Shown here one piece after another: positions 1,608-63,454 of a stretch of DNA of 64,000 nucleotides (positions are counted from its first letter, which is position 1; every line of letters starts with the position of its first letter). The DNA comes from Pyrinomonadaceae bacterium. GTDB taxonomy: Bacteria > Acidobacteriota > Blastocatellia > Pyrinomonadales > Pyrinomonadaceae. Under the pieces are notes generated by a model. The model was not told the origin of the DNA and ran no database searches. It saw nothing but the letters and a program-made list of their open reading frames with translations. The DNA lies in assembly GCA_036388475.1 (NCBI GenBank), contig DASVRT010000020.1, positions 18,412 to 82,411 of the forward strand. The letters are read 5' to 3'. The position numbers and the translations under genes were made by a program.

Positions 1608-1642
1608 TGATACCAAAAAGATATTTATTACGCTTTACTTTT
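1608..1642 (+). promoter_or_regulatory. Candidate promoter, instance f of the recurring motif: TGATAC-N17-CGCTTTAC
   Basis: TGATAC at 1608-1613, a 17-nt spacer, then CGCTTTACTTTT at 1631-1642. This is the same two-box motif found upstream of 41940, 43908, 51814, 54343 and 54967. Confidence 0.4.
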
Positions 1643-41869: not shown

Positions 41870-41905
41870 TGATACCTTTTTGCATCTCCTTTTCGCTTTA
41901 GTTGG
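41870..41905 (+). promoter_or_regulatory. Candidate promoter, instance d: TGATAC-N18-CGCTTTAG
   Basis: TGATAC at 41870-41875; CGCTTTAGTTGG from 41894. ATG at 41940. Confidence 0.4.
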
Positions 41906-41939
41906 CAGAGACCGATTTTTTTCCCGAGGGAGACACGAA

Positions 41940-43415
41940 ATGCAAAGCAATTATCTTATTAAATTCGCAGTTTTAATTATCTGTTTAATTTCTTCAAACG
42001 CCGTCTATGCCGACGTTAAAATCAAGACGCGGCAGACGGTCGGCGGGCAGACCTCCGAAAATACGACCTATATCAAAGGCAAACGCCAGCGCTCGGAGAT
42101 GATGGGCGGAAAAATGGTTAGCATTACGCAGTGCGATTTGCGCCGCGACGTGCAGATTATGCCGGACGGCAAAGTTTATATGGTCAACCCGTTTGACGGC
42201 GGCGCGGCGGCGCAGGCGAACGAAAACGTGTCGCAAACGCAGACGACGACCAAGCTCGAAACCGGCGGAACGATTACGATGACCTACACGACCAAAGACA
42301 CCGGCGAGCGCAAACAGATGTTCGGCTACACGGCGAAACATTTGATTATTACGATGGAATCGGTCGCTTCCGCCGATGCCTGTATGAAAAACAACAGCAA
42401 GATGGAGATGGACGGCTGGTATATCGACGCCGCCTGGTATTTTCAATGCGACCGCGGCTATGCGGGCGGCTACACGCCGAAAAGCCAGAAAGCCGGCTGT
42501 CAGGACAAATACGTGATGAAGCAGGTCGGCACGGCGAACCGCGGTTATCCGGTCTGGGAAAAAATGACGATGTACGATGCAAGCGGCAAGGAAATGATGA
42601 CGTCGCTCAACGAAGTCGTCGAGCTTTCGCAAGCCACTCTGGAAGCTTCGCTGTTCGACATTCCGCAGGGCTACCGCGAAGTTAAAGATTCGTCCGAGCT
42701 GTATGCGAGTATGTCGAGCCAATCGAGCAGCGGTCAGTCGAGCAACGGCAGCACGACGAGCGGCGGCAATAACGGCAATTCCAATAGTTCTTCCAATTCC
42801 GGTATGAGCCGGAACGTGCAGAATATGTCGAAATCCGAACCGGACATTTCGACGACGGTCGGCGCGAAAAAAGAAGGTACTGTCCGCATCGGCTTGGCGG
42901 GCGTGAAAACCGGCGCGGTCGGCGAAGGCTTGAAGGCGGCGGAGCTTGCCGGAGCGATTCGGAGCACGCTCGGCGAATATCTGAAAGGCACGAAGATTGA
43001 GCTGGTTCAAATCGAAGCCAGCCTCGCGACGGCAATCGAAGCCGAAGCCAAGCAGAAGGAATGCGATTACGTTCTTTACGCGCAGGTTTCGCACAAAAAA
43101 GGCGGCGGCGGTTTCGGAATGTTCTCGAAAATCGCGCCCGCCATCGGCAACATCGTGCCGGTCGCAGGAATCGGAAGCAGAAGCGGACAAATCGCCGGAC
43201 AGGTTGCCAACACCACGATTTACACGGCGGCAAACGCGGCGGGCAACGTCAAATCGAAAGACGAATTGACGCTCGAAATCAAGCTTAATTCAACCGGCGG
43301 CGCGACCTCTCTCGCCAGGCAGTATAAAACGAAAGCCAAATCCGACGGCGAAGACATCATTTCCCCGCTCGTCGAACAGGCGGCGACCGCGATTCTGGAA
43401 ACGGTCGGCAAATAA
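41940..43415 (+). CDS. Secreted protein with a C-terminal module related to the 'AVLPF' (TolB-N/LpoB-like) modules of the giant kinases
   Basis: Signal peptide MQSNYLIKFAVLIICLISSNAVYA; Ser/Asn/Gly-rich linker. The C-terminus ...KSKDELTLEIKLNSTGGATSLARQYKTKAKSDGEDIISPLVEQAATAILE is paralogous to the C-terminus of the 45470 protein. Confidence 0.55.
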   Translation: MQSNYLIKFAVLIICLISSNAVYADVKIKTRQTVGGQTSENTTYIKGKRQRSEMMGGKMVSITQCDLRRDVQIMPDGKVYMVNPFDGGAAAQANENVSQTQTTTKLETGGTITMTYTTKDTGERKQMFGYTAKHLIITMESVASADACMKNNSKMEMDGWYIDAAWYFQCDRGYAGGYTPKSQKAGCQDKYVMKQVGTANRGYPVWEKMTMYDASGKEMMTSLNEVVELSQATLEASLFDIPQGYREVKDSSELYASMSSQSSSGQSSNGSTTSGGNNGNSNSSSNSGMSRNVQNMSKSEPDISTTVGAKKEGTVRIGLAGVKTGAVGEGLKAAELAGAIRSTLGEYLKGTKIELVQIEASLATAIEAEAKQKECDYVLYAQVSHKKGGGGFGMFSKIAPAIGNIVPVAGIGSRSGQIAGQVANTTIYTAANAAGNVKSKDELTLEIKLNSTGGATSLARQYKTKAKSDGEDIISPLVEQAATAILETVGK

Positions 43416-43550
43416 ATCAGAAAAGTGTCATCATCCGAACCTCCTTTTTGAGACGGTCTTCGCTCGACCGTCTCTTTTTTTATTGGCGGCAGGTTTCGGG
43501 CGAAAATGTATGAAAAGCGAACGAAATCTGCGGTTTTATAGAGGACAAAT

Positions 43551-43762
43551 GGCGTTTGGCAACTGCCGAAGCGCTTCCGGCAATTGCCAAACCGATTCCG
43601 GCAACCTCCGGAAAGCGTCCGGCAACTGCCGAATTCGGTCCGGCAGCTTCCAAACGCCGCTCGGCTAATTCCAAATCTCATACGGCAGCTTCCGGAAGCC
43701 TTCCGGCAACTGCCGAACTGCGTCCGGCTTCTTCCGAACTGCGTCCGGCTTTCGCCGAAACT
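43551..43762. repeat. Array of ~10 tandem 21-bp units (consensus TCCGGCAACTGCCGAAnTGCG), each with a short internal palindrome
   Basis: Units start at approximately 43553, 43574, 43595, 43617, 43638, 43660, 43683, 43701, 43722 and 43743. The array is translated as a spurious QLPNxVR repeat in ORF 43584. Confidence 0.7.
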
Positions 43763-43822
43763 TATTTATCCGAAGCCATTTGAAGGCAGGCAGCCGGAAA
43801 CGGGCGAATTATATATTTTTTT

Positions 43823-43857
43823 TGATACTTTTCGTATCGCCTTTACGCTATTACCAG
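43823..43857 (+). promoter_or_regulatory. Candidate promoter, instance e: TGATAC-N17-CGCTATTAC
   Basis: TGATAC at 43823-43828; CGCTATTACCAG at 43846-43857. ATG at 43908. Confidence 0.4.
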
Positions 43858-43907
43858 AGAAGACTATTCTTCAATCTTTTATTTATTCCATAAGTGAGCA
43901 AGCAATT

Positions 43908-44300
43908 ATGTCTATTATTCGAAAAATTACCTGTTATTCATTACTGATTTTATCTATTTTGTCCGCCGTGCCGACTTTGGCGACGACGGAAGACCGCGTG
44001 ACAATCGACCGCGACATCGTTTTCCGGCGCGGCGCGATTTCCGCTTCCCTGCGCGGCAGAATCAATCGCGGCACGACGCATTTATACCGCATTCGCGCCC
44101 GCGCCGGGCAGGAAATGGCAATCGTCCTGAAAACGGGCGAGCAGACTTCCGCGACGCTCTACGCGCCGACCGCGGGCATTGTCGAAGGCGCGGACGGCAT
44201 CCGCCAAACGCTCGTCGAACTGCCCGAAACCGGCGAATACCTGATTCAAATCGGCACCGATGCCGCCGCTAATTACACGCTCGAAGTAACGATTAATTAA
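43908..44300 (+). CDS. Small secreted PPC-like beta-sandwich protein
   Basis: Signal peptide MSIIRKITCYSLLILSILSAVPTLA. Homologous to the C-terminal domain of the 1684 protein. The ORF-track start at 43584 is an extension created by translating the tandem repeat. Confidence 0.6.
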   Translation: MSIIRKITCYSLLILSILSAVPTLATTEDRVTIDRDIVFRRGAISASLRGRINRGTTHLYRIRARAGQEMAIVLKTGEQTSATLYAPTAGIVEGADGIRQTLVELPETGEYLIQIGTDAAANYTLEVTIN

Positions 44301-44317
44301 AAAGGAGAACTGCAATT

Positions 44318-45361
44318 ATGACTACGCAAACACACGCCGCCGCGCTCGCGCCGGAAATGCCGACCGAAGCCGTTTTGGGGCAAATCCTGATGGGCGCTTT
44401 TACGTCGCAAGCCGTCTATGTCGCCGCCAAGCTCGGCATCGCCGATTTGTTGAAAGATAATCCGCGCCCGGTCGCGGCATTAGCCGCCGAAACAAATACC
44501 GACGCCGACGCGCTTTACCGCGTTCTGCGCGCGCTGGCGAGCATCGGCATTTTTGCCGAAACCGCGCCGAAAACTTTCGCGCTCACGCCGTTTGCCGAGC
44601 CGCTTTTGAGCGACCGCCCGGGCAGTATGCGCGAGATGGCAATCTGGATTGGCGAAGAAGCGCACTGGCGCGTTTACGGCGAGATGCTTTACAGCGTCCG
44701 AACGGGCAAACCCGCCTGGGAACGCGTCCACGGGCAGGAAGCTTTCCCGTACCTGTTTGAAACCGACCGCGCGCTGGGCGATATTTTCAACCGCGCGATG
44801 ACCAGCTTTTCGTCGAGCGTCGCGCCGGCTATCGCGCAGGCTTATGATACGTCGGAAGCGAAAACGCTGGTCGATATCGCCGGCGGTCACGGGCTTTTGC
44901 TTTCGGCATTTTTGAAAACGAATCCCGATTTAAAAGGCGTTTTGTTCGACGTGCCGACGGTTATCGAAGACGCGGGCGCGCTGCTCGAAAGCGAAGGCGT
45001 CGCCGAAAGAGTCGAAGCCGTGACGGGCGATTTTTTCCAAAACGTTCCGGCGGGCGGCGACCTTTATATGATGAAACACATCATTCACGATTGGGACGAC
45101 GCGCGCGCGCTCGCCATCCTGAAAAACATTCATTCGGCGATGAACGAAAACGGCAGGGTTTTAATCGTCGAGATGGTCGTCAAAGAAGCGAACGAGCCGG
45201 ATTTCAGCAAGATTATGGATTTGGAAATGCTCGTCACGCCCGGCGGCGTCGAGCGCACGGCGGAAGAATACCGCCAGCTGCTGGCGCAAGCCGGATTTCG
45301 CCTGACGCGCATCATCCCGACCGCTTCGCCATATAGCATTGTCGAAGCCGTTAAAGCTTAA
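44318..45361 (+). CDS. SAM-dependent O-methyltransferase (class I, family 2, with N-terminal dimerisation domain)
   Basis: LVDIAGGHGLLL...VLFDVPTVI...GDFF..VPAGGDLYMMKHIIHDWDD. It lies 17 nt after the 43908 gene, so the two are probably co-transcribed. Confidence 0.85.
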   Translation: MTTQTHAAALAPEMPTEAVLGQILMGAFTSQAVYVAAKLGIADLLKDNPRPVAALAAETNTDADALYRVLRALASIGIFAETAPKTFALTPFAEPLLSDRPGSMREMAIWIGEEAHWRVYGEMLYSVRTGKPAWERVHGQEAFPYLFETDRALGDIFNRAMTSFSSSVAPAIAQAYDTSEAKTLVDIAGGHGLLLSAFLKTNPDLKGVLFDVPTVIEDAGALLESEGVAERVEAVTGDFFQNVPAGGDLYMMKHIIHDWDDARALAILKNIHSAMNENGRVLIVEMVVKEANEPDFSKIMDLEMLVTPGGVERTAEEYRQLLAQAGFRLTRIIPTASPYSIVEAVKA

Positions 45362-45363
45362 CT

Positions 45364-45410
45364 GAAAGCTGAGAACTGAGAATCGTTTTCAATTCTCAGT
45401 TCTCAGCTTT
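45364..45410 (+). terminator. Hairpin terminator (family A, CTGAGAA heptamers)
   Basis: AAAGCTGAGAACTGAGAAT-cgttttc-AATTCTCAGTTCTCAGCTTT. Confidence 0.6.
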
Positions 45411-45469
45411 GCCCGCCGTTAAAAGTATCGGCAAATTGAATAATCAATCAGGAGAATGCGGAAATCATC

Positions 45470-46093
45470 GTGACCATCAAATCAACGGCAATTACAATTT
45501 TTATCGCTCTGATGATAATTTTGACCGCGAACGCCGCGTTTGCACAGGAGCCTGTCGCGCCGACCAATCCCGAATTTCAAACTGAAGCGCCGGTGCCTGA
45601 CAATTCGATGCCGGTCAGAATCGGCATTGCTCTGCCGAAAGCGAATTTTTTCGAGGACGGCGTGAACAGTTTTCAAATAGCGGCGAGCATCCGCGAAATT
45701 ATCGGCAATCACTTTAACGGAAGCGGCATCGAGATAATCGCGCTGGAGGCTCGCCTGCCGCCCGCGATTGCCGTCGAAGCCAGAGAAAAAAGTTGTTTTT
45801 ATATTTTGCAAACCGTCGTTTTGAGAAAACGAAGCGGCGCGAAGCTTAATTCAATGACGCCGGCGACAAGCATTAACGGAGGCGCGCAGACGGTGCTTTA
45901 CAAGGCGGCGGATTTGGCTTCGACGACGAAATCGAAAGACGAATTCACTTTCGAATACAGCTTGATTTCCACCGAGGACAATGCGGTTAAAGCTAAAAAT
46001 TCTTTCAAAACAAAGGCGAAAGCCGACGGCGAAGACGTTCTTTCGTCGATGTTGGAAAATATGTCGAAGGCGGTTCTGGCTGCGGCAAAGTAA
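45470..46093 (+). CDS. Secreted protein with an 'AVLPF'/LpoB-like module
   Basis: GTG start; signal peptide TIKSTAITIFIALMIILTANAAFA. VRIGIALPKANFFEDGVNSFQIAASIREIIG... C-terminus paralogous to that of the 41940 protein. Confidence 0.55.
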   Translation: MTIKSTAITIFIALMIILTANAAFAQEPVAPTNPEFQTEAPVPDNSMPVRIGIALPKANFFEDGVNSFQIAASIREIIGNHFNGSGIEIIALEARLPPAIAVEAREKSCFYILQTVVLRKRSGAKLNSMTPATSINGGAQTVLYKAADLASTTKSKDEFTFEYSLISTEDNAVKAKNSFKTKAKADGEDVLSSMLENMSKAVLAAAK

Positions 46094-46181
46094 ATAAAGT
46101 TTCAAACGACGACGGAAAAACGCCCGGAAGGCGGGAGCGGGCGAGAATGAAAATTTCTTGCCTTCTTTTATTTTATCTTTT

Positions 46182-49100
46182 TTATTTTATCGGTTTTTCA
46201 ATTTCCGGAAGCTTCATTCTCCGCAATAAATCGCCGTAGCGCGCGTCGTCGCGGATTGAATCCAGCATCGGCTCGGTCGCGAACCAGAGCAGCCACGGGT
46301 CGAATTCGGCTTGCGATTTTTCAAAATAATCAAAAGCCTCGTCGCGGTCGCCGAGCGCGGCGTGCGCCATTCCCAGAAAATACGGTTTGAGATACGTTGC
46401 GCCGTCGAGCTCCTGCATTTCGCGCAAAACCGCGCGCGCTTCGTCCATTCGACCGACCGCGACGTACGCAAAGCAAAGCTTATATTTCGGCAGCCCCGAT
46501 TGCGGTATCATCGCCGCGAATTTTTCCAGAAAACCGACCGCTTCGTCGATTCGTCCGAGCGCCCATAAATTGATGCCGGTCTGCGCGTAGCCTTGCGGGT
46601 AATTCGGGTCTAAGTCGATAATTTCCCTGCCTTTGGCAAGGGATTCTTTGTGATGACGCGCTTGATACATCGTCCACGCGACCAGCGTTTTCGTGCGCAA
46701 AGAGAGCGGGTCAAGCTGTTCGGCGAGCAGAATTTCCCGAACGCCTTTCTCAAATCTGCCCGTTCCGACCAGCCAAGCCGCATACCATTCGTGAGAATTC
46801 GGATAATTCGGATTCAGCTCCGCCGCGCGATGATAAATCCGCTCGGCTTCATCCCAATTCTGCATGTTCTGCGTGTGCAAGCCGAGCGCGGCGTAAGCCT
46901 CGCCCAACTGGTCGTCGAGTTCGATGGCGCGCCGCGCGGCGGCTTCGGATTTTTCCAGTGCGACGCGCGACGGCATAATGCCGTAAATGTTCGCCCACGT
47001 GTAGAAATCCGCCAGCCCGACATACGCCAGAGCGTAATCCGGGTCGAGATTGATGGCTTTTTGAAACGATTCGAGGGCTTTGATTAAAGCGTCGGGCGTA
47101 AATTGATTCCAGTGAAAACGCCCGCGCAGATACGCTTCGTAGGCTTCAGGGTCGTTCGTTCCGCGTTTTTCGAGCTGGCGGCGCTCTTCGCCCGTCAATT
47201 GCGGAATCAGCGATTGCGCGACTTTTTCCGAAATCGAATCTTCCAGTTCCAAAACGTCCGACGATTTTTCGTCAAAGCTTTCCGCCCAGACCGTCGCGTT
47301 TTCGCTGACGCTTAAAAGCTGGACGGTCACACGGATACGCTCGCCGCTGCGCCGGATGCTGCCGTCGAGAACGTAATCGACCGCCAGTTTTTTTCCCGCT
47401 TCGAACGGATCGACTTCCGTTTGCGCGTATTGCAGAACGGAACTGGTCGGGCGCATTACAAAACGACGCACGTTGGAAAGCCGCGTAATCAACGCGTCCG
47501 TCAAGCCGATGCCGAGATATTCGTCTTCGCCCGCGCCGGTCAGCGCGCCGAATAACCTTAGCGGCAACACGGCGATAGCTTTCGCGCCGCCGGTATCAAG
47601 GCGGGCAATTTTAGATTCTTCCGGCGGCTGAGCCAGAGGATTTCCCGAACGGCGCAGCAAATCGGCATAACGCGCGTCGTCGCGCAAAATGTCGAACTGC
47701 GGGTCGACGCCGAGCCAGTTCAGCCACGCGTCACGCGCCGCAAAAGATTTTTCGAGATTTTCAAAAGCACTGTCCTTATCGCCGAGCGCGCAGTAAATCA
47801 GCGCGAGCATATATTCGGAAACAAACCGCGCCTGAGAAATTTCCCTGAGCCGCGCGAGAATTTTTTCGGCTTCGGCGCGCTCGCCCGCCTCGGCGTAGGC
47901 GGCAGCCAGCTCGTTCAGGTAGAACGGATTTTCGCCCGTCAGCCGGACGGATTTTTCAGCGCTGGCGATGGCTTCCCCGTATTGTCCGGCGCGGCGCAGA
48001 ACCCAACTGAAAGTCTGCAAGCCCCAGGCGTAATTCGGCTCGTTGCCGAGCATTTTCCGGTGCACGGCGATCGACTCGTCAAAACGCCGCGCGTGATACA
48101 AAACCCACGCTTGCAGATGCAGGCTCAGAATCGAATCCGGGTCGAGTTCGAGAACGCGATTTATTTCATCGAGCGCCTCGTCAAAGCGCCCGCTATGCGA
48201 AAGAACCGTGTTCAGCCAGCTATGCGCCGCGACCGAATTCGGATTCAGTTCGATGGCGCGCCGCAGATGTTTCTCCGCCGCGTCCCAATCCCAGTTATAG
48301 CTAATCTCGACAAAGCCCAGAACGGCGTAGCCTTCGGCGAGCGTCGGGTCGAGCGCGACAGCTTTTTCCGCCGCTTCTCTGGCGGGTTTCGCGCCTGCGG
48401 CAAACGGGATAACGCAGTGAATACCGAGAAAAATATAATATTCGGTCAGTGCCGCGTAAGCCAGCGCGTAATTCGGGTCGAGCTCGACGGCGCGCCTGTA
48501 AAACTGAATGGCGCGCGCAAAGCCTTCTTCGCTGTGCAGATTCCAGTTGAAACGCCCGCGCAAGTAGGCTTCATAGGCTTCGGCTTTCTCGGTCGCGCGT
48601 TTGGCGAGCTGCTGCTGTTCTTCGCCGGTCAGATGCGGAACGAGCGATTTGACGACCTGCTCGGAAATCAAATCTTCGAATTCGAGAATGTCGGAAGCTT
48701 TTTCGTCAAAGCTCTGCGCCCATTCGGTCGAATTGCCCCTGACGCTCAAAAGCTGAACCGAGACGCGAATCCGCGCGCCGGAGCGCCGGATATTGCCGTC
48801 CAGAACGTAATCGACGTTCAGCTCGCCGCCCGCCGCAAACGGGTCGGTGTTTTCCTTGAAATTAAGAATCGAGCTGGTCGGGCGGACGATAAAACGACGC
48901 ACGTTGGAAAGACGCGAAATCAACGCGTCAGTCAGCCCGATGCCGAGATATTCGTCGTCGGAATCTCTCGTGCCGAGCATTTTCAGCGGCAGCACGGCGA
49001 TTGATTTTTCTTTGTCTTTAGTTGCGCCCGACGCTTTTTGCCGCCTGACGGAAGGATGATTTATGGCTTTCAATAATCGCTCGCAGCGCGCGTCAGCGGC

Positions 49101-51638
49101 AAGCGCGTCGAACTGCGGGTCAACCGCCAGCCAGCTCAATCTGCCGTCGCGGATTTCGAGCGCCTTATCCAGCAATTCAAAGGCTTTTTCCACGTCGCCC
49201 AGATTGACGTAAATCATCGCCAGAAGATACGGCGAGACATACTGCGTCACCGATAAATTCTCGATTTCGCCGATTAAGCCGCGCGCCTCGTCGTCCTGCC
49301 CAGCCGCCGCATAGGCGGAAGCGAACCAGCATAGCGTGTGCGTGCTTCTGCCGAGCAGCGCGACGGCGTGCTGCGCGACCTTTATCGCTTCCTCGTGTCT
49401 GCCGCTGCGCGACAGCACGCCGATCAAAAATAAATGCGCCAAGCCGTAATGCGGTTCTTCTTCAATCAGCCGGTAAGTTCCCGCAATCGCTTCGTCATAG
49501 CGGCGGGCGTGATACAAAAGCCAGTTTAAAGTCTGCGGGATGATGGGCGTAAACGGGTCGAGTTCGAGCGCTTTATTGACTTGCTCGAAGGCTTCTTCAA
49601 AGCGCCCGCGCATCCCCAGTTGATAGGCGTACCAGACGTGCCCGATGGAGTAATTCGGGTTCAGCTCGATCGCCCGGCGAAAATAATTGTCGGCGGCTTC
49701 CCAATCGAAATCGCCCAACTGCGCGGCAAATCCGAGCGCCGCGTAGCCTTCCGCCAGCTTCGGGTCAAAGGCAATCGCCTGCCGCGCCGCTTTTTTCGTC
49801 GCCGCGGTCGTTTCGGCAAAAGGTCGAACCGCATAAATGCCGAGAAAATTGTAATAATCGGCGATTCCGGCATAGGCGAGCGCGTAATCCGGCGCAAGCT
49901 CAATCGCGCGTTGATAAAAGGCGAGCGATTTGGCAAAGCCTTCGACCGTAAATTGATTCCAGTGATGGCGCCCGCGCAGGTAGGCTTCGTAGGCTTCGGC
50001 GTTGTTGGTCGCGCGTTTTGCCAGTTGATTTTTTTCCTCGCCCGTCAGATGCGAAACGAGCGTTTTGACGACGCGCTCGGAAATCGAGTCTTCAATCTCC
50101 AGCACGTCCGTCATTTTTTCGTCGAAGCTTTCAGCCCAGCGCGTCGCGTTTTCGCCGATGCTCAAAAGCTGGACGCTGACGCGCACGCGGTCGCCGATGC
50201 GCCGGATGCTGCCTTCGACGATAAACTCGACGTCCAGCTCGGCGCCCGCCGCAAACGGGTCGGTGCTGCCGGCGTAGCGCATTATGGAGCTGGTCGGGCG
50301 CACCACCAGCCGCTTGACGCCGCTCAGACGCGAGCCGAGCGCGTCCGCCAGACCGATGCTCAGATATTCGTCGCCCGTCTCGTCGCTCTGCGCCGCGCCG
50401 AGCAGTTTAAACGGCAGAATGGCAATCGAATTTTTGGCTGTCCGTTCGGCTTTTACAACGACCGTTACCGGCAAATCAAACGACTGCGCCCGGACGGGAC
50501 GCTTTTCCAGATAATTGGAAATGTCCTCGCTCAATTCGGCGGCGGATTGATAACGCTCCGCCGCGCTTTTGCGCAGGGTTTTCAAAACGATTTTGTCGAG
50601 ATTGCCCGAAAGCTCGTGCTGCAAAGTCTCAAGCGTCGCGCCGCGCGAGGCGAAAATTACATCCAGCGTCGGTTTTTCGCCCGTGCCCGTATCGCTGCGC
50701 GCAAAATTGTCTTCGCGCGTCAGGATTTCGCTCGGGCGCGTCGGTTCTTCTTCGCGGACGGCGCGCGCGATTTCATACGGCGCGCGGCTTTTGACGCGAT
50801 ACGGGCGATGCCCGGTCAGCAGCTCATACAGCAAAACGCCCAGGCTGTAAATGTCGGAGGCGGGCGTGACAGCCTCGCCGGAAATCTGTTCGGGCGAAGC
50901 GTATTGCGGCGTCATCATTCGCATATGCGTCGCCGTCGGCTCCATCGCCGTCGCGCCGAATTCCGGGTCGAGCAATTTGGCGATGCCGAAATCGAGCAGC
51001 TTCGGCGCGCCGTCCGCCTTGACCAGAATATTAGACGGCTTTAAATCGCGATGGATAATTTTATGGCGGTGCGCTTCTTCAAGCGCCGCGCAGATTTTTT
51101 GAAAAATTTGCAATCTTTCATTGATGCTCAAACGCCGCCGGTCGCAATAAGCGTAAAGCTGCTCGCCCTCGACGTATTCCATCACGAAATACGGCAAGCC
51201 TTTTTCGGTCGAGCCGCCGTCGAGCAGGCGCGTGATGTTCGGATGATTCAGCGTGGCGAGAATCTGCCGCTCATTGCGAAAGCGGCGCACGACCAAATCC
51301 GTGTCCATTCCGCGTTTGATAAGCTTGACGGCGACTTGTCGCGAGAAAGCGCCGTCGACTCTTTCCGCGAGGTAAACCGCGCCCATCCCGCCGCGACCGA
51401 GCTCGCGCACCAGCCGGTAAACGCCGATTTGCCGTCCAATCATCGCGTCCAGCTCGCGGTCTTCGGTCGTTTCGCCGGCAAGCGTTTTTTCCAGCATTTC
51501 GCCGGTCAAAAGTTTTTCCACTTCCTCGCGCATCTCGACATCGGCGCAGGTTTCGGCGAGAAAAACGGTGCGCTCCGCCTCGTTCATCGCGAGCGCGGCT
51601 TGAAAAGCTTTTTCGATTTCTTGCTGTCTGGGCGACAT
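46182..51638 (-). CDS. Giant soluble Ser/Thr protein kinase (1818 aa): N-terminal leader, Hanks kinase domain, then three tandem [AVLPF-like module + TPR] repeats
   Basis: GRGGMGAVYLA...VAVKLI...HRDLKPSNIL...DFGIAKL are the kinase subdomains. The modules begin AKNSIAILPFKLL, KSIAVLPLKML and KAIAVLPLRLF. No TM segment. Confidence 0.9.
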   Translation of the reverse strand: MSPRQQEIEKAFQAALAMNEAERTVFLAETCADVEMREEVEKLLTGEMLEKTLAGETTEDRELDAMIGRQIGVYRLVRELGRGGMGAVYLAERVDGAFSRQVAVKLIKRGMDTDLVVRRFRNERQILATLNHPNITRLLDGGSTEKGLPYFVMEYVEGEQLYAYCDRRRLSINERLQIFQKICAALEEAHRHKIIHRDLKPSNILVKADGAPKLLDFGIAKLLDPEFGATAMEPTATHMRMMTPQYASPEQISGEAVTPASDIYSLGVLLYELLTGHRPYRVKSRAPYEIARAVREEEPTRPSEILTREDNFARSDTGTGEKPTLDVIFASRGATLETLQHELSGNLDKIVLKTLRKSAAERYQSAAELSEDISNYLEKRPVRAQSFDLPVTVVVKAERTAKNSIAILPFKLLGAAQSDETGDEYLSIGLADALGSRLSGVKRLVVRPTSSIMRYAGSTDPFAAGAELDVEFIVEGSIRRIGDRVRVSVQLLSIGENATRWAESFDEKMTDVLEIEDSISERVVKTLVSHLTGEEKNQLAKRATNNAEAYEAYLRGRHHWNQFTVEGFAKSLAFYQRAIELAPDYALAYAGIADYYNFLGIYAVRPFAETTAATKKAARQAIAFDPKLAEGYAALGFAAQLGDFDWEAADNYFRRAIELNPNYSIGHVWYAYQLGMRGRFEEAFEQVNKALELDPFTPIIPQTLNWLLYHARRYDEAIAGTYRLIEEEPHYGLAHLFLIGVLSRSGRHEEAIKVAQHAVALLGRSTHTLCWFASAYAAAGQDDEARGLIGEIENLSVTQYVSPYLLAMIYVNLGDVEKAFELLDKALEIRDGRLSWLAVDPQFDALAADARCERLLKAINHPSVRRQKASGATKDKEKSIAVLPLKMLGTRDSDDEYLGIGLTDALISRLSNVRRFIVRPTSSILNFKENTDPFAAGGELNVDYVLDGNIRRSGARIRVSVQLLSVRGNSTEWAQSFDEKASDILEFEDLISEQVVKSLVPHLTGEEQQQLAKRATEKAEAYEAYLRGRFNWNLHSEEGFARAIQFYRRAVELDPNYALAYAALTEYYIFLGIHCVIPFAAGAKPAREAAEKAVALDPTLAEGYAVLGFVEISYNWDWDAAEKHLRRAIELNPNSVAAHSWLNTVLSHSGRFDEALDEINRVLELDPDSILSLHLQAWVLYHARRFDESIAVHRKMLGNEPNYAWGLQTFSWVLRRAGQYGEAIASAEKSVRLTGENPFYLNELAAAYAEAGERAEAEKILARLREISQARFVSEYMLALIYCALGDKDSAFENLEKSFAARDAWLNWLGVDPQFDILRDDARYADLLRRSGNPLAQPPEESKIARLDTGGAKAIAVLPLRLFGALTGAGEDEYLGIGLTDALITRLSNVRRFVMRPTSSVLQYAQTEVDPFEAGKKLAVDYVLDGSIRRSGERIRVTVQLLSVSENATVWAESFDEKSSDVLELEDSISEKVAQSLIPQLTGEERRQLEKRGTNDPEAYEAYLRGRFHWNQFTPDALIKALESFQKAINLDPDYALAYVGLADFYTWANIYGIMPSRVALEKSEAAARRAIELDDQLGEAYAALGLHTQNMQNWDEAERIYHRAAELNPNYPNSHEWYAAWLVGTGRFEKGVREILLAEQLDPLSLRTKTLVAWTMYQARHHKESLAKGREIIDLDPNYPQGYAQTGINLWALGRIDEAVGFLEKFAAMIPQSGLPKYKLCFAYVAVGRMDEARAVLREMQELDGATYLKPYFLGMAHAALGDRDEAFDYFEKSQAEFDPWLLWFATEPMLDSIRDDARYGDLLRRMKLPEIEKPIK

Positions 51639-51720
51639 CGTTTATGCAATCAGAAGATTGTCGCAAGTATAACGAAATTAGCCGAATGCGACAATTTTTT
51701 TGCGAGATTATTTGCCTGCC

Positions 51721-51772
51721 TGATACTTTTTCCGCTTGATTTGCGCGTTACAGACAACGCGCAAATCAAGCG
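51721..51772 (+). promoter_or_regulatory. Candidate promoter, instance a (TGATAC-N17-CGCGTTAC), overlapping a perfect 17-bp-arm palindrome
   Basis: TGATAC at 51721-51726. CGCTTGATTTGCGCGTT-acagac-AACGCGCAAATCAAGCG spans 51733-51772. It sits in the divergent region between the kinase start (51638) and the lipase-gene start (51814). Confidence 0.35.
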
Positions 51773-51813
51773 CCGCAGCCGCGCGGCGAGCGGGACAGCT
51801 TTCAAAGGAAATT

Positions 51814-54165
51814 ATGAAAAAAATCGCATCAAACTTTACTTTCAGGAAATTATTTTTAATCGTTTTGTGTTTAAACGTTTTGAGCGGCAACGTTCTGAGC
51901 GCGGCGGCGCAAACGCGGCGCGCTTCAAATCAACCGGCTTCGAGCAATCAGCCGAATAAATCCGCGCCGAAATGCTCCGGCGCGTGGACGGGCAATATCA
52001 CATACACGCGAACGCAGACGATGACCGACAGCAAAACCGTCAAGCGAGTTTCAAATCGCGGCGAGGACAAGCGCGATTGGGAGATGCGATACAACTACAA
52101 AGCGTCGGTCGCCGTTCTGGAAACACCCGAAAAAAACGGCTCGAACATCGGCAAAGCGCGCATCGAGCATAAGTTTTCATCAATCGACAAAACCATCGCC
52201 AGAGAAGAAAACTCGTGCGACCGCGGCAAGACTTTCCAGGTGATGACCGGAAATTTTCTGACGAAAGCCGAAACGACCGGAAACGCCACCAATGCCGAGG
52301 CGAATGTTAATGTCGGCGTGAACGCCGACGGCACATATACGGTGAGCGTCGGCTTGCCGCAAATTCAAGGGCTGACGACCGGAAAAGAAACTTCCAGCTT
52401 CAGCGGGCAGTGCCAACCGAAAAAAGGCAAAGATTTGACGCTGCCGGAAACGCCGACGAGCGTCGATGGAAATTCGCTAACCAGCGAGGGCAAAGACCGC
52501 ATTAATCCGCAAGACCCGAATCGTCTTTCGGGAAGCTATTCGAAAACGTGGCAGAACGTGACGGAAACGATTTCGTGGAATCTGGAAAAATGCGGCGCGC
52601 CGCTCAGGATTACGGATTTGCAGTTTGAAGATATGAAATATCCGAACTGGAACGACTGGCAGGAAATCGTCGAACAGCGCGGAACGATTGACGGCAATCT
52701 CGTTAAAATCAAAGCCAAAATTTTGAACACTTCGGGCGAAACGAAATTCGCCGACGTGCGTTTTAAAGAAACTTACAAAGGCGACAAATGGGACGGCGCA
52801 CGACCCGACGCGCCGCTGAAAGACGATGTCGCTTCGGTGCGCGTCGAAGCAAACAGCGAAGAAACGGTCGAATTGGTCTGGGATTCGTCAGGCTACGCGT
52901 GGTTTGACGACGGTCGCCCGCGACTCGTGCAGCGCATCAAAGCCGAACTCGAAGAAAACAGCAAAAAGATTGACGAAGCGACGGAAAATCTGAAAGTCGC
53001 GCCGAAACCGCTCGTGCTGGTTCACGGACTCTGGAGCAATTGGGGCGCGTGGCTGCCGTGGCAGAATATTCTGACGACTTCGCACTCTTACGATTGGAAA
53101 GCGTTTCCGGTCGGCGAAAAGCCCGAACACGGCGTGATGAACACGGGCACGACGTTTATGTCTTCGGAACAGACGGATTCAATCGCCGACAACGCGCACA
53201 AGCTTGAAACATACATCGAATACGCCCAAAAAGACCGTAACGCGTGGCACGTCGATGTCGCGGCGCATTCGATGGGCGGGCTGATTTCGCGTTATTACAT
53301 CGACCAGATTATGCAGAATAATGCCGAGGACGGTCGCCCGCGCATTTCGCATCTCGTGATGCTCGGCACGCCGAATATGGGTTCGCCCTGCGCCGATGTG
53401 ATGGATTTGGCGTTTGGAATGGTCGGCAAACAGGTCGAAGCCGTGCGCCAATTGCAGCAGGATTATGTCGAAGGTTTCAACAAAGTCATCACGCAGCGCA
53501 AAGGCGTCAAATTCTCCGCTCTCGCCGGAAATTCGGTGCCGACCGTCTGCAAATGGTCGGGCGCGGGCGACGGCGTGGTGCAAGTGCCGTCAGCGCATTG
53601 GACAATCAAAGATACGGGTTTGTCCGACAGCCTGCACACCGATTTGACCGGCACGAAAGATTTCTCGAATTTCGTCAAACCGCACGTGGCAATCGGACCG
53701 AAAGGCAATCACAATCCCGAAATGCCCCAGATGCCCAATCGGACGGGACAGCAGCAGCAGCAAAATCAATTCGGCGCGTATTTTATGAACGCGTCATACC
53801 AAGCGCCGGTTTCAAACGAGTTTTCGCTTCCGAATACGATTGATAAAGATTATTACAAACCCGATTTTGCGAAAGCGGTCAAACTCGCGCCGAAGCAGTC
53901 GGTCGAAATCGAAATTCCCGTCCCGACGGCGCAAAATTTCGGCATCACGTTTATGGCTGATTCAAACGTGTCCGCCACGCTTTCGAGCGACAAAGGCGAA
54001 GTTCTCGGCAAAAATCTGACGAAAACGCCCGAAGCGAATTTGTGGTTTCGTTCGATTTTCGTGAACCGCAACGTCAGCGCCGGAACGTGGAAACTGAAGC
54101 TCGAAAACACTTCCGACCGCGAGCACGAAGCGATTATCGCGACGTGGAAAGACGCCTTGAAGTAA
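51814..54165 (+). CDS. Secreted alpha/beta-hydrolase (Lipase_2/PGAP1-like) lipase-esterase with N- and C-terminal beta-sandwich domains
   Basis: Start at the ATG at 51814 with AAAGGAAATT upstream (track ORF starts at 51736); signal peptide MKKIASNFTFRKLFLIVLCLNVLSGNVLSAAA. PLVLVHGLWSNWGAW ... AAHSMGGLISRYY ... LGTPNMGSP ... GDGVVQV. Confidence 0.7.
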   Translation: MKKIASNFTFRKLFLIVLCLNVLSGNVLSAAAQTRRASNQPASSNQPNKSAPKCSGAWTGNITYTRTQTMTDSKTVKRVSNRGEDKRDWEMRYNYKASVAVLETPEKNGSNIGKARIEHKFSSIDKTIAREENSCDRGKTFQVMTGNFLTKAETTGNATNAEANVNVGVNADGTYTVSVGLPQIQGLTTGKETSSFSGQCQPKKGKDLTLPETPTSVDGNSLTSEGKDRINPQDPNRLSGSYSKTWQNVTETISWNLEKCGAPLRITDLQFEDMKYPNWNDWQEIVEQRGTIDGNLVKIKAKILNTSGETKFADVRFKETYKGDKWDGARPDAPLKDDVASVRVEANSEETVELVWDSSGYAWFDDGRPRLVQRIKAELEENSKKIDEATENLKVAPKPLVLVHGLWSNWGAWLPWQNILTTSHSYDWKAFPVGEKPEHGVMNTGTTFMSSEQTDSIADNAHKLETYIEYAQKDRNAWHVDVAAHSMGGLISRYYIDQIMQNNAEDGRPRISHLVMLGTPNMGSPCADVMDLAFGMVGKQVEAVRQLQQDYVEGFNKVITQRKGVKFSALAGNSVPTVCKWSGAGDGVVQVPSAHWTIKDTGLSDSLHTDLTGTKDFSNFVKPHVAIGPKGNHNPEMPQMPNRTGQQQQQNQFGAYFMNASYQAPVSNEFSLPNTIDKDYYKPDFAKAVKLAPKQSVEIEIPVPTAQNFGITFMADSNVSATLSSDKGEVLGKNLTKTPEANLWFRSIFVNRNVSAGTWKLKLENTSDREHEAIIATWKDALK

Positions 54166-54265
54166 AGAAATAACAATTTGCAATTTGCCCGCCAAACTCG
54201 CCGGAATGTTTCTTATTAGATTCGTTTCGGCGAGTTTTCCCTTTTCCGGAAAAACTTTTTTCGCC

Positions 54266-54299
54266 TGATACTTTTCCCCGAAATTCTCCGCTTTAACAA
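54266..54299 (+). promoter_or_regulatory. Candidate promoter, instance b: TGATAC-N17-CGCTTTAACAA
   Basis: TGATAC at 54266-54271; CCGCTTTAACAA at 54288-54299. ATG at 54343. Confidence 0.4.
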
Positions 54300-54342
54300 T
54301 CAGAACAAAACTTATATCCATTCATCAACAAAGGAATTTTTT

Positions 54343-54768
54343 ATGTCATATCAAGTTGCAAACAATTCGAATTCAATCAACGCTCAAACTTCGAGTTTCG
54401 GGCTTTCGCCGAACGCCGCGTCGCTGGTCAGCTACGTCTGGGTTCCCGTGACGAGCATTCTCGTTATTGCCACCGAAAAACAGAATCGCCTCGTACGTTT
54501 TCACGCCTGGCAATCGCTTTTCTTCGGTCTCGGCATTTTTGCCCTGACGATTGTTTTAAGCCTCGTCATCGGCGTTCTGATGCTGGTTGCCGGCGCGATT
54601 TCGCCGTATCTCGGCATCATCGTCTCGCTCGGCTCGCTGCTCGTCTGGATGATTCTGGCGCTGGCGATTCTCGGCGCGTGGATTATGTGTCTGGTGAAAG
54701 CGTATAAAGGCGAAATGTACCGGCTGCCGGTGGTCGGCAAATACGCCGAAAATATGAGCGTCAAATAG
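54343..54768 (+). CDS. DUF4870-like small membrane protein
   Basis: 141 aa; RFHAWQSLFFGL motif and three TM segments. Confidence 0.6.
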   Translation: MSYQVANNSNSINAQTSSFGLSPNAASLVSYVWVPVTSILVIATEKQNRLVRFHAWQSLFFGLGIFALTIVLSLVIGVLMLVAGAISPYLGIIVSLGSLLVWMILALAILGAWIMCLVKAYKGEMYRLPVVGKYAENMSVK

Positions 54769-54804
54769 AGGAGAATTTGCTTCGCAGACAAAATAAAAGA
54801 CCGC

Positions 54805-54852
54805 CGCCGGAATTAAATCCCGGCAGCCCGCGTACCAGACGCGGGCTTTTTA
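54805..54852 (+). terminator. Rho-independent terminator (two adjacent hairpins)
   Basis: GCCGGaattaaatCCCGGC, then AGCCCGCGT-accag-ACGCGGGCT followed by TTTTT. Confidence 0.65.
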
Positions 54853-54899
54853 ATTTGGAATTAAAGCGCGCGTTTCGCACTCTGAAAGCTACCATCGCG

Positions 54900-54936
54900 T
54901 GATACCTTTTGCCGCTCGATTTCCGCTTTAACAAGT
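54900..54936 (+). promoter_or_regulatory. Candidate promoter, instance c: TGATAC-N18-CGCTTTAACAA
   Basis: TGATAC at 54900-54905; CCGCTTTAACAAG from 54923. ATG at 54967. Confidence 0.4.
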
Positions 54937-54966: not shown

Positions 54967-55443
54967 ATGAAAAACCAACTTAATATTTTACTCGTCTTAA
55001 TTTTACTTTTAGGTGTCAGCCTGGCGTGCAATCGCTCGGAGGCAAAACCCGACTTCAAAAATCAAACCGAAAACCGCGCGGCGAAAACCGAGAAAACGGA
55101 CGGCAGCAGCAGCGAAACCGAACGCCTCGACAGCTACAGCTTGCGCGGTCTGGAATTTATCTACTACAAAATTCCGGCTGACCTGAGCCGCGAGCAGTTG
55201 ATTGAAACGGCGCAGAAGCTGCACGAAGAAGAGCCGAAAGCGCAGTTGATTCTGGTCGACGACGATTCGCAGGTCGAAGATTACGTCAAATACGCGAAAG
55301 CCGTCAGCAGCGGCGATTACGACGCGGAATTTCCGAAACAGTGGGCGGAAGACCACATCGTTGCCAACGTCCAGAAGCTTCTGAGCGGCAAATGGATGGT
55401 CTATGAAAGCTACGGCTACAAGGAAATCGCGGAATTGAAATAA
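54967..55443 (+). CDS. Hypothetical lipoprotein
   Basis: MKNQLNILLVLILLLGVSLAC lipobox. Confidence 0.55.
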   Translation: MKNQLNILLVLILLLGVSLACNRSEAKPDFKNQTENRAAKTEKTDGSSSETERLDSYSLRGLEFIYYKIPADLSREQLIETAQKLHEEEPKAQLILVDDDSQVEDYVKYAKAVSSGDYDAEFPKQWAEDHIVANVQKLLSGKWMVYESYGYKEIAELK

Positions 55444-55485
55444 TTTAAAACCGGGAAACGTTTAAATAGAAAAGGAACTCGCGCT

Positions 55486-56289
55486 ATGAAAAAAACAATT
55501 TATCTTTTCGCATTCATTTTTACGGTTTTGTCATTTGCCGCCGCGCCCGAATCGGCGAGCGCGCAGTACAACTTCAATTACAGCAGCAGCATCTGGGTCA
55601 ACGGCAATATGAACCTGCTTTTCCAGAAGCGCTGGGAGACGGCGCGGATTCGCGCGGCGGGCAAAACCCAGCTCGCCGACGCGATGGAAGGCAGACGCAG
55701 CGGCGGCAATCCGACGAGCGCGCAAGTCGCGCCGGCGGAAAACATTCTGCGCCGCGTGCCTATAACGGAAACTTCTTTTAAATCAAATCCGGCGACGATT
55801 ATGCCCGCCGTTTTCGGCGCGTCGCTGGTCGATGCCAAACCGGAAGACAGCCGGACGCTCATCAAAGTTTCGGGCGAGCTGCTCAAAAATTACGAGGAAA
55901 TGCTTGTTACCAATAAAGAAACGCACTTGAAAAACAACGTCGCGGGCGCGGCGACTTTTGCGCTGGTGACGAGCCGCTCGATTTTGACCGAAGGCAAAAA
56001 CGAGCTTTCGGAAAAACAGACCGAAGCCCTTTTGCAGGACATCAACGCGCTGCTCGCTTCGAGCGAGAATTTCAAGAAAATGACGGACGCCGAGAAACAG
56101 AAAATGTATGAAACATTCGTCATCGCCGGCGGTTTAACGACGATGCTTTATCGCGAAGGCACGGAAAAAACCGACGCTGAAATCCTCGCCAAAGGCAAAG
56201 ATTTGGCGAAAGCCGTTTTGTCGCAGTTCTTTAAGCGGTCGCTGAACGAAATCAGTTTTACTGAAGACGGCGTGCAATTCGGCTTTTAA
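55486..56289 (+). CDS. Hypothetical secreted protein
   Basis: Signal peptide MKKTIYLFAFIFTVLSFAAAPESASA. Confidence 0.5.
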   Translation: MKKTIYLFAFIFTVLSFAAAPESASAQYNFNYSSSIWVNGNMNLLFQKRWETARIRAAGKTQLADAMEGRRSGGNPTSAQVAPAENILRRVPITETSFKSNPATIMPAVFGASLVDAKPEDSRTLIKVSGELLKNYEEMLVTNKETHLKNNVAGAATFALVTSRSILTEGKNELSEKQTEALLQDINALLASSENFKKMTDAEKQKMYETFVIAGGLTTMLYREGTEKTDAEILAKGKDLAKAVLSQFFKRSLNEISFTEDGVQFGF

Positions 56290-56337
56290 TGTAAAGGCGC
56301 GCCGGTTTTGCCGTTCGCGCCTTTTGACCGAGGAAAA

Positions 56338-56715
56338 ATGAAATTTGCCAGGTATACATTTCTGATTGCGGCAATTTACGGTTTGCTGGCGCTCGCGCCG
56401 CAGTATTTTCTCGAAGCGAAAAACGGTCGGGATTTTCCGCCCGCGATAACGCATCCCGAATATTATTACGGTTTTACGGGCGTCGCGCTGGCGTGGCAAA
56501 TCGCTTTTCTGATTATTTCGCGCGAGCCGTCACGATATCGCCCGATAATGATTCCGGCGATGTTCGAAAAATTCAGTTTCGGCGTTGCCGCAATCGTTTT
56601 GTTTTTGCAAAACCGACTGCCCGCGATGCTGCTCGGCGCGGGAATTTTGGATTTAATTCTCGGCGCGCTTTTCGTCGCCGCCTTTCTTAAGACGAAAGAA
56701 AAGCGGGAAGCGTAA
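56338..56715 (+). CDS. Hypothetical integral membrane protein
   Basis: Start at the ATG at 56338 (GAGGAAAA Shine-Dalgarno); four predicted TM segments. Confidence 0.5.
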
Positions 56716-56904: not shown

Positions 56905-57105
56905 AAGAAATTCACCAGACGGACACAAAGAACACTAAAGAGAAATACTCCGCAGACAAACCGGAAACGACACGGATAAGAAATTGATTTGAAATCTGAA
57001 ATCTGAAATTTCAAAATCGCAATTCTCGCGTGCTTATCTGCGCCCGTTCGTGTTTATCTGCGGGCTATTCTTTAGTGTTCTTTGTGTCCGTCTGGTGAAA
57101 TTTAA
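56905..57105. repeat. About 200-bp palindromic MITE-like element, copy E1: 29-bp perfect terminal inverted repeats around a TTTGAAATCTGAAAT core
   Basis: CACCAGACGGACACAAAGAACACTAAAGA at 56912-56940 matches its reverse complement at 57072-57100. The core GATAAGAAATTGATTTGAAATCTGAAATCTGAAATTTC is shared with copy E2. It abuts the kinase stop at 57102. Confidence 0.6.
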
Positions 57106-62878: not shown

Positions 62879-63454
62879 GTGTCCGCCGAAAAAACACAAG
62901 AGATAACGCAGCTGCTGATAAAGCTTTCCAACGGTCAACGCGCCGCCGTGGATGACCTTTTGCCGTTGATTTACGACGAATTGCGCTCTCTCGCTTCGAA
63001 TTACCTGCGCCGCGAGCGCGTCTCGCACACTTTGCAGCCGACGGCGCTCGTTCACGAAGCTTATTTGAAACTCGTTGACGTCAATCAGGTGACGTGGCAG
63101 AATCGCGCGCATTTTTTCGGCGTCGCGGCAAACCTGATGCGGCGGATTCTGATTGATTACGCGCGCCAGCACAAAGCCGACAAGCGCGGCGGCGAATTTC
63201 AAAAACTCGCGCTCGACGAAAACATCGACAAAGCCGCCGAGCAAAGCACGGAGCTGGTCGCGCTGGACGACGCGCTCGAAACTCTCTCGAAAATCGACCC
63301 CGTCAAAAGCCGCATCGTGGAGCTTCGCTATTTCGGCGGCTTGACGGTCGAAGAAACCGCCGAAGTGATGGGCATCTCCACCATTACCGTCAAGCGCCAC
63401 TGGCGAATGGCGAAAGCCTGGCTCTACGGACAACTCAGCAATGACCCCAATTAG
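62879..63454 (+). CDS. ECF-type sigma-70 family sigma factor of the Ser/Thr-kinase-associated group (TIGR02999/ECF43-like)
   Basis: GTG start with a GGAGAGG Shine-Dalgarno. LLPLIYDELRSLASNYLRRERVSHTLQPTALVHEAYLKL (region 2) and IVELRYFGGLTVEETAEVMGISTITVKRHW (region 4). A kinase gene starts 14 nt before the sigma stop codon. Confidence 0.8.
   Translation: MSAEKTQEITQLLIKLSNGQRAAVDDLLPLIYDELRSLASNYLRRERVSHTLQPTALVHEAYLKLVDVNQVTWQNRAHFFGVAANLMRRILIDYARQHKADKRGGEFQKLALDENIDKAAEQSTELVALDDALETLSKIDPVKSRIVELRYFGGLTVEETAEVMGISTITVKRHWRMAKAWLYGQLSNDPN

Follow-up and report, generated by a model that had tools for sequence, protein, structure and literature searches.

To our knowledge, kinase-coupled sigma factors of the extracytoplasmic function (ECF) class abound in Acidobacteriota and Planctomycetota, and only two examples, both proteobacterial, have been studied. 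These are EcfP-PknT of Vibrio parahaemolyticus and EcfK-PknS of Xanthomonas citri, ECF43-type systems in which a sigma factor made up of sigma2 and sigma4 only is coupled to the gene of a Hanks-type kinase, no anti-sigma gene adjoins, and region 2.2 carries an uncharged, threonine-containing stretch in place of its acidic patch (group consensus QTTA, STTA in EcfP; PMC13147305, PMC8999054). Their regulons, which concern polymyxin resistance or a type VI secretion system, are directed at the envelope or the cell exterior (PMC8999054, PMC8103513, PMC13147305). We analyzed a 64-kb stretch of DNA from a soil bacterium of the Pyrinomonadaceae, Acidobacteriota (contig DASVRT010000020.1), hereafter the window, in which an element of two boxes with the consensus TGATAC-N17/18-CGC(T/G)(T/A)TTA is present in six copies, all on the + strand. 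Based on its sequence context, we propose that the six sites serve as promoters for an RNA polymerase holoenzyme with an ECF (group 4) sigma factor, the likeliest candidate being the TIGR02999/PF07638 sigma factor encoded at 62879-63454 of the same window, and we put the probability of this reading at roughly 65%.

The candidate cognate sigma factor (62879..63454, +; 191 aa) resembles EcfP and EcfK in several respects. It consists of sigma2 and sigma4 only, with a short linker, and is encoded beside a Hanks-type kinase with no anti-sigma gene at its side, the flanking genes having been checked for anti-sigma domains. PF07638 covers residues 7-187, PF08281 lies over region 4, and TIGR02999 scores 221.9 bits against a cut-off of 126. 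Together with an overlapping kinase gene, these profiles bear out the kinase-coupled ECF sigma that a sequence-only reading of this DNA had placed at 62879. Region 2.2 reads ...HTLQPTALVHEAY..., with Q53-P-T55-A-L-V-H-E (QPTALVHE) where DxxDxxQE is expected; judged by eye against the published motif definition (PMC13147305, PMC8999054), the acidic DAED/DxxD patch is thus replaced by uncharged residues including a threonine. QPTA-type replacement of DxxD has been described for ECF43 (PMC13147305, PMC8999054, PMC8103513). QPTA is invariant in 13 orthologs, and QSTA is found in locus L157. The label ECF43-like rests on the TIGR02999 and PF07638 profiles and on region 2.2, with phosphorylation assigned by analogy; a sequence search of the PDB with the sigma factor found no relative. 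In contrast to the two studied systems, the host belongs to the Acidobacteriota rather than the Proteobacteria, the kinases are giants (1,745-1,818 aa) with TPR and beta-propeller regions, three of them are encoded nearby, and the targets comprise DUF4412, DUF4870 and DUF6683 proteins, a lipase-like hydrolase and an O-methyltransferase.

The six sites and their putative targets

Pattern search recovered the element at all six positions that the sequence-only reading had named. Site 1 (-35 box 1608-1613, -10 box 1631-1637; TGATAC-N17-CGCTTTA) ends 46 nt before ATG 1684 of a gene (1684..2604, +) for a 306-aa predicted lipoprotein of a narrow family, with a signal peptide ending ...AFSAC. Site 2 (41870-41875 and 41894-41900; TGATAC-N18-CGCTTTA) ends 39 nt before ATG 41940 of a gene (41940..43415, +) for a secreted 491-aa protein of the Pfam family DUF4412, and a terminator-like hairpin with a T-run (43450..43474, +) ends this transcription unit. 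Site 3 (43823..43853, with boxes at 43823-43828 and 43846-43852, the latter reading CGCTATT(A); TGATAC-N17-CGCTATTA) ends 54 nt before ATG 43908 of an operon (43908..46093, +) that encodes a secreted 130-aa protein (43908-44300), an O-methyltransferase (44318-45361) and a secreted 207-aa protein (45470-46093) and is followed by a terminator-like hairpin (46139-46163); the label 'PPC' earlier given to the 130-aa protein found no Pfam match and is unconfirmed. Site 4 (51721-51726 and 51744-51750; TGATAC-N17-CGCGTTA) lies 63 nt before ATG 51814 of a gene (51814..54165, +) for a secreted 783-aa alpha/beta-hydrolase, DUF7379/DUF676/LCAT-like, which we call lipase-like. Site 5 (54266-54271 and 54289-54295; TGATAC-N17-CGCTTTA) is 47 nt from ATG 54343 of a gene (54343..54768, +) for a 141-aa membrane protein, with a terminator-like hairpin behind it (54825-54847); the protein is DUF4870/MamF_MmsF-like, although its Pfam score falls just below the cut-off, and the DUF4870 label previously attached to it holds only to that extent. 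Finally, site 6 (54900-54905 and 54924-54930; TGATAC-N18-CGCTTTA) ends 36 nt before ATG 54967 of an operon (54967..56715, +) for a 158-aa lipoprotein (54967-55443), a secreted DUF6683 protein (55486-56289) and a small membrane protein (56338-56715). Four of the sites thus have a 17-nt spacer and the other two an 18-nt one. All six sites are in non-coding DNA and point at the downstream gene, the second box starting 43-70 nt ahead of the ATG, as had been stated, and ending 36-63 nt before it, and each of the start codons behind them has a plausible ribosome-binding site.

The set is sharply bounded. The exact pattern TGATAC-N16-19-CGCWTTA matched four times in the window versus an expectation of 0.02, and a count of four was not attained in any of 100 dinucleotide-preserving shuffles; loosening the second box to CGC-N1-2-TTA recovered the two variant sites and brought the total to six. 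A matrix built from the six window sites returned those six alone, at 26-40 bits, with the next match at 9.9 bits. A two-block matrix built from 43 sites of many genomes scored them at 17.7-37 bits and the next best position, on either strand, at 10.6 bits, while no match of 14 bits or more is expected on shuffled sequence. It is this gap to the next match, together with the empty shuffles, that sets the six sites apart. Site 1 (1608..1637) is the weakest, at 17.7 bits, and is missing the T-tract after the -35 box. This T-tract (TGATAC(C/T)TTT) and a TTT ahead of CGC are conserved and lay outside all search patterns; the sequence-only reading had noticed these T-rich features only in part. No copy of the element was found by matrix scan at the housekeeping genes of the window (ack, udk, purine nucleoside phosphorylase, hsp20, clpB, grpE, groEL, gpmA, folC and accD), in agreement with the earlier claim, the next matrix match reaching just 10.6 bits. 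As for RNA explanations, the window contains no Rfam family and no tRNA.

The products encoded behind the element are overwhelmingly exported or membrane proteins, as the earlier reading had stated for its targets: a hydrophobic N-terminus was found in 38 of 42 downstream proteins, a count in which orthologs enter repeatedly, versus 18 of 38 other window genes.

The layout of the sites supports the conclusion, drawn from sequence, that the element behaves as a sigma-factor promoter: the boxes are unlike each other, the spacer is rigid (17 nt in 27 of 32 sites and 18 nt in the other 5), the orientation is towards the gene, the distance to the start is short, and conservation does not extend beyond the boxes. 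An ECF promoter would present a pair of unlike boxes, rigidly spaced by some 16-18 nt and facing a gene shortly downstream, and a -35 box that ends in AC and is followed by a T-tract, with a -10 box starting with CG, fits the ECF type and is unlike sigma70. The sites do not conform to the sigma70 pattern (TTGACA-N16-18-TATAAT, in which the second base of the -10 box is A and the sixth is T), since their -10 region reads CGCTTT, and a consensus scan found no sigma70-like site at the five cluster sites within the scanned region. A sigma70-like TTGACA-N17-TATTAT is, by contrast, present ahead of hsp20. Because the housekeeping genes lack the element and sigma70-like hexamers occur elsewhere, it appears to be a promoter class apart from the general promoter of the lineage. 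The promoters of Bacillus subtilis sigW have the consensus TGAAAC-N16-CGTA. The window sites share with sigW, sigX and sigM promoters the TGnnAC -35 box with T-tract, the CG-initial -10 box, the rigid spacer and the envelope targets; they differ in having TAC rather than AAC, CGC rather than CGT, a spacer of 17-18 rather than 16-17 nt and a longer -10 element, TTTnCGC(T/G)TTA, and the window sigma factor is unrelated to these sigmas beyond the ECF fold and has no anti-sigma control. A site in locus L212, from a related genome, reads TGAAAC-N17-CGCGTTA. The ECF-like, non-sigma70 geometry described in the sequence-only reading is thus supported by the layout, by the mismatch to sigma70 and by this L212 site.

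Conservation, sigma factor linkage and neighbouring features

The sequence-only reading would have been refuted by a lack of conservation of the boxes upstream of orthologs in related genomes, and the boxes are kept. For each of the six sites, one or more further genomes or contigs from Acidobacteriota metagenomes (loci designated L) carry a counterpart before an ortholog. The clearest case is the DUF4412 gene. Loci L203-L209 were retrieved through protein homology to DUF4412, without use of the motif, and all seven orthologs (56-81% identity) carry the motif about 70 nt before the ATG; counting L007, L096, L129 and the window, the motif stands before the DUF4412 gene in 11 genomes out of 11. 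When these upstream sequences are aligned, the columns that never vary are TG..C, TTT, CGC and TTA, at a mean column identity of 43%: spacers and flanks diverge, and the boxes remain. Across the seven 21-kb loci L203-L209 we found 24 sites, of which 23 are on the gene strand. The other sites behave similarly. Site 1 has its counterpart in L213, as TGATAC-N17-CGCCTTA before a 78%-identical ortholog; the CGCTATT variant of site 3 recurs before orthologs in L203 and L204, with related sites in L206 and L208; the lipase-like gene of site 4 is preceded by the motif in L012, L203, L204, L207, L209 and L210, with the CGCGTTA variant among these copies; the DUF4870 gene of site 5 has TGATAC-N17-CGCCTTA in L210; and the lipoprotein gene of site 6 has counterparts in L099 and L210 with a different spacer sequence. 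DUF6683 orthologs in L211 and L212 have a motif copy of their own. NCBI assigns proteins identical to products of the window to a metagenome-assembled Pyrinomonadaceae genome (Acidobacteriota, Blastocatellia). The window sequence is also present in ENA, JGI and Logan assemblies, and the same-species contigs L001-L003, being identical in the promoter regions, are uninformative for conservation.

A pattern scan over one genome per species (185,579 species) returned at least 119 loci, to be read as taxon enrichment rather than as per-genome counts. Among the matches listed, 15 are Acidobacteriota loci, 9 of them labelled Pyrinomonadaceae. Read locus by locus, the motif is intergenic in all 15 and aimed at an open reading frame (ORF), mostly one with a signal peptide. 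The listed matches in other taxa lie inside long open frames in 77 of 105 cases, as would be expected of chance matches; the stop-to-stop test behind this figure overcounts acidobacterial sites as being inside ORFs (5 of 15), as such frames extend upstream of the true start.

We also compared the positions of the motif and of the sigma gene. Orthologs of the sigma factor (66-82% identity) divergently adjoin the motif-bearing DUF4412 gene in L206, L207, L209 and L129, and in L128 the sigma ortholog adjoins a DUF4412 gene with a degenerate motif. In L208 the sigma ortholog is about 6 kb off, and in L096 about 1-2 kb off with an insertion sequence (IS) element in between. DUF4412 is the regulon member that most often adjoins the sigma gene, and L209 holds the sigma, DUF4412, 131-aa, O-methyltransferase, lipase-like and kinase genes in one block. 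Furthermore, within 450 nt upstream of 74 sigma relatives, CGC[GT]TTA occurred 19 times on the divergent strand versus 3 times on the same strand, with 2.9 expected from the rest of those loci (Poisson P = 4e-10). The -10 box stays constant among these sites while the -35 hexamer shifts with the helix of sigma4 (region 4). The helix TVKRHWRM goes with TGATAC, TVNRQWRM with TGACAC or TGACAT, TIKRHWRT with TGATCC (three sites, one locus), TIKRHWR(F/L) with TGACCC or TGGTCC, and TIEREWRK with TGTCGG (two independent loci); the helix of the window sigma factor reads TVKRHWRMAKAW. The sigma-regulon link, which the sequence-only reading had offered as a possibility, is supported by this synteny, by the strand-specific enrichment of the -10 box and by the co-variation of -35 box and sigma4, and it is on these grounds that we infer it.

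In a sister lineage (L124 ~9600-10000, L125 ~8750-9145, L126 ~3950-4347 (minus)) the sigma ortholog has, in place of DUF4412, a small Cys-rich ORF (...FGC(W/R)H.E(L/M)SRPFSR.GR...) as its divergent neighbour, and this ORF is preceded by TGACCC-N17/18-CGCGTTA. A second promoter type, TGGTGG-N17-CGCGTTA, occurs in L124 (3117 -) and L125 (1393 -), and L124 encodes a second TIGR02999 sigma paralog (5028-5609, -) a few kb from the first. The arrangement in L124 and L125 suggests that paralogs share a common -10 box and differ in the -35 box. In L096 an ISXO2/IS1595-like transposase gene (5421-6101, -) separates the sigma ortholog from two genes with the motif; one of these two encodes a glyoxalase/VOC-like cytoplasmic protein, among the few targets that are not exported.

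The kinase genes stand close to both the sites and the sigma gene. Giant Ser/Thr kinase 1 (46182..51638, -; 1818 aa, Pkinase and TPR) is divergent from the lipase-like gene and is a conserved member of the cluster; its own promoter, at 51694-51666, is sigma70-like. Kinase 2 (57102..62339, -; 1745 aa, Pkinase, TPR and PD40 beta-propeller) is divergent from the sigma gene, and the start of kinase 3 (63441..64000, +) overlaps the sigma gene end in a sigma-kinase operon that runs past the window. Sigma orthologs are also kinase-paired in L206 and L208. All three giant kinases have a common N-terminal segment of about 45 aa before the kinase domain, M(S/T)P..(R/K)W..(I/L)E..F..A......R..(F/Y)L.E.C..D..LR.E...LL, which could be a docking module for the sigma factor.

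The structure model of the DUF4412 protein has a mean pLDDT of 68, with about 80-90 in the N-terminal domain. In a Foldseek search the N-terminal half matched LolA, LolB, RseB and MucB chains at E = 1e-6 to 1e-3, a modest similarity of predicted fold (TM-score normalised by target length, 0.36-0.47). The C-terminal third (~residues 310-491) is modelled as a separate alpha/beta domain, to which weaker matches with PelC and GNA1162 lipoprotein chains might correspond, and long low-confidence linkers are found at residues 260-302 and 390-428. If the modelled fold is correct, the locus would resemble the Escherichia coli sigmaE-RseA-RseB system in the genomic coupling of an ECF sigma to a secreted protein with a LolA/RseB-type lipid-binding fold, and would differ from it in having no RseA-like anti-sigma factor and in that the DUF4412 gene is a divergent target outside the sigma operon. 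A sensor role for the DUF4412 protein is speculation. Taken with the lipase-like hydrolase and the lipoproteins, the modelled LolA/RseB-like protein hints, equally speculatively, at the handling or sensing of envelope lipids.

At site 4, a perfect 17-bp inverted repeat (51733-51749 / 51756-51772; CGCTTGATTTGCGCGTT / AACGCGCAAATCAAGCG) overlaps the -10 box, and as a whole (51733..51772) it is located between the lipase-like gene and the divergent kinase gene. L210 retains part of it (CGCGTTAcagacagcgcgc at site 340). The repeat may be an operator.

Elsewhere in the window, long intergenic hairpins with arms of 17-38 nt, built of short repeated words such as GAACGCGGAACGCGGAA or AAAAGTGAAAAGTGAAAA, are found mostly right after genes (3211-3262, 8798-8876, 21651-21724, 27567-27742, 34428-34502, 36217-36301, 45365-45410, 56831-56892 and 62640-62740); they could be long terminators or a family of REP-like elements. 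Between grpE and groEL, where groES might be expected, is a 202-aa ORF (25181-25789) with an N-terminus that, by eye only, looks like a Uma2-type endonuclease.

Weighing the readings

Several observations weigh against assigning the sites to an ECF sigma factor and to the 62879 sigma in particular. As a general rule, ECF promoters have 'AAC' in the -35 box, which later ECF classification dropped as a defining feature, and 'CGT' in the -10 box (PMC8103513); the -35 box reads TGATAC (TAC) in the window and TGACAC, TGATCC or TGACCC in relatives, with TGAAAC in L212 only, and the -10 core is invariably CGC, within CGC(T/G)TTA. The region upstream of the sigma gene (62340-62878) has no motif copy, nor do the intergenic regions of L206, L207 and L209 have one on the side facing the sigma gene, and the usual argument from ECF autoregulation is therefore unavailable. 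The sigma gene is instead preceded by a sigma70-like TTGGAA-N18-TATACT (62802-62831); a lack of autoregulation fits post-translational control, and exceptions to ECF autoregulation are known, for example FecI-like ECFs (PMC8103513). The strict TGATAC motif was absent from 581 kb around sigma relatives (80 metagenome loci, 52-72% identity). This absence near distant relatives is explained by the drift of the -35 hexamer with the region 4 helix, and as a case against the sigma link it was set aside by the strand-specific -10 search and by the -35 variants read; at distant relatives, the link nevertheless holds only when such drift is allowed, and the co-variation itself is confounded by shared ancestry. 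Both the promoter and the sigma assignment, moreover, are drawn from sequence throughout: that transcription starts at the sites, that the 62879 sigma and not a paralog reads them, that phosphorylation gates it and that the genes serve together as its regulon is what we infer.

The main rival reading accepts ECF-type promoters and has them read by a different sigma, either a TIGR02999 paralog or an unrelated ECF encoded elsewhere, with the 62879 sigma merely encoded nearby or co-regulated as part of the island. Autoregulation through the motif is lacking at the sigma gene, which in the window is separated by 8 kb from the closest site and by 21 kb from the DUF4412 gene; no sigma gene was found within 10 kb in L203-L205, three of the seven DUF4412-centred loci; and paralogous sigmas use the same -10 box, CGCGTTA, because of which the assignment of TGATAC to the 62879 sigma over a paralog depends on synteny. 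All of this would suit such a reading and counts against ours. Nonetheless, several lineages show a sigma gene of this ortholog group divergently adjoining a motif-bearing DUF4412 gene, the -35 variant follows the region 4 helix of the ortholog-group sigma, and in L124 and L125, which hold both the TGACCC and the TGGTGG type, it is TGACCC that is directly upstream of the ortholog-group sigma on the divergent strand. We thus consider a different sigma unlikely, and still the most serious competitor of the 62879 sigma.

Readings in which the element is no ECF promoter fare worse. An operator for a conventional activator or repressor would be conserved ahead of a co-functional gene set, as the motif is, and one site does overlap a perfect 17-bp palindrome; the boxes, however, are dissimilar and form neither a direct nor an inverted repeat, their spacing is fixed at 17 nt (27/32 sites) or 18 nt, and they are oriented towards the gene in 6/6 window sites and 23/24 sites of L203-L209. 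The consensus scan also found no alternative sigma70-like promoter in the scanned intergenic regions, and in its -35 box, T-tract and CG-initial -10 box the element follows the ECF arrangement, with TGAAAC in L212. An operator in place of a promoter is accordingly improbable. It is more improbable still that the motif is a lineage variant of the housekeeping promoter, even though some phyla, such as Bacteroidota, have non-canonical primary promoters and those of Acidobacteriota are essentially unmapped: only six sites serve some 25 or more transcription units in 64 kb, none of the ten housekeeping genes listed above has one, near-consensus sigma70 hexamers are present ahead of hsp20 and of the sigma gene, and within a single locus different paralog groups have different -35 hexamers. 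That the sites arose by chance, or through the spread of a repeat or mobile element, has nothing more in its favour than the AT-richness of intergenic DNA. These readings are refuted by the match statistics (~0.02 matches expected), the matrix gap and a conservation limited to the boxes, which are invariant while spacers and flanks are unrelated between sites and between orthologs.

Proposed mechanism and meaning

Under our preferred reading, in which the 62879 sigma reads the six sites, the sigma would be made constitutively from its sigma70-type promoter and would be inactive, having QPTA in place of the acidic DxxD in region 2.2. Upon an envelope or external signal, a nearby giant TPR/beta-propeller Ser/Thr kinase would phosphorylate the QPTA threonine, and the phosphorylated sigma would then bind core polymerase. 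Region 4 would read TGATAC(Y)TTT and region 2 would read TTTnCGC(T/G)TTA 17-18 nt downstream, and about eleven genes in six units would be switched on, with DUF4412, the small secreted protein and O-methyltransferase, the lipase-like hydrolase, the DUF4870 protein, the lipoproteins and DUF6683 as products. The steps beyond the promoter are proposed by analogy with EcfP-PknT and EcfK-PknS. More tentatively, the TIGR02999 (ECF43-like) sigma factors, which in Acidobacteriota have expanded into many kinase-paired paralogs, may all read one family-wide -10 box, CGC(G/T)TTA, and be told apart by a TGnnnn -35 box that a small number of positions in the region 4 helix T[IV]xRxWxx[AT][KR]AW would determine. 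Next to each sigma gene a divergent 'first target' would be kept, in Pyrinomonadaceae the gene for the LolA/RseB-like secreted protein, through which the kinase could be informed of the state of the envelope lipids.

A literature search returned no paper tying TGATAC to an ECF sigma and no account of the promoter consensus or the regulon; nor was a promoter consensus for ECF43 found in the literature reached. The regulon of a kinase-coupled ECF sigma is a known kind of system whose existence would not surprise a specialist, and the value of the present one is practical. ECF promoters are usually discovered by inspecting the DNA upstream of the sigma gene. That route fails here because the sigma gene lacks the motif, and the targets of kinase-gated ECF sigmas are hard to predict because these sigmas are not autoregulated. 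The cluster offers a candidate sigma-promoter pair, a core regulon of exported proteins that is conserved, and a natural series of -35 boxes with the sigma4 helices that go with them, all testable in a heterologous host without culturing the source organism. If the family-wide reading is true, the window would hold the first readable promoter code for kinase-gated ECF sigmas. The cluster could also supply orthogonal phosphorylation-gated sigma/promoter pairs for synthetic biology, and would permit prediction of the regulon in Pyrinomonadaceae genomes from soil and biocrust metagenomes.

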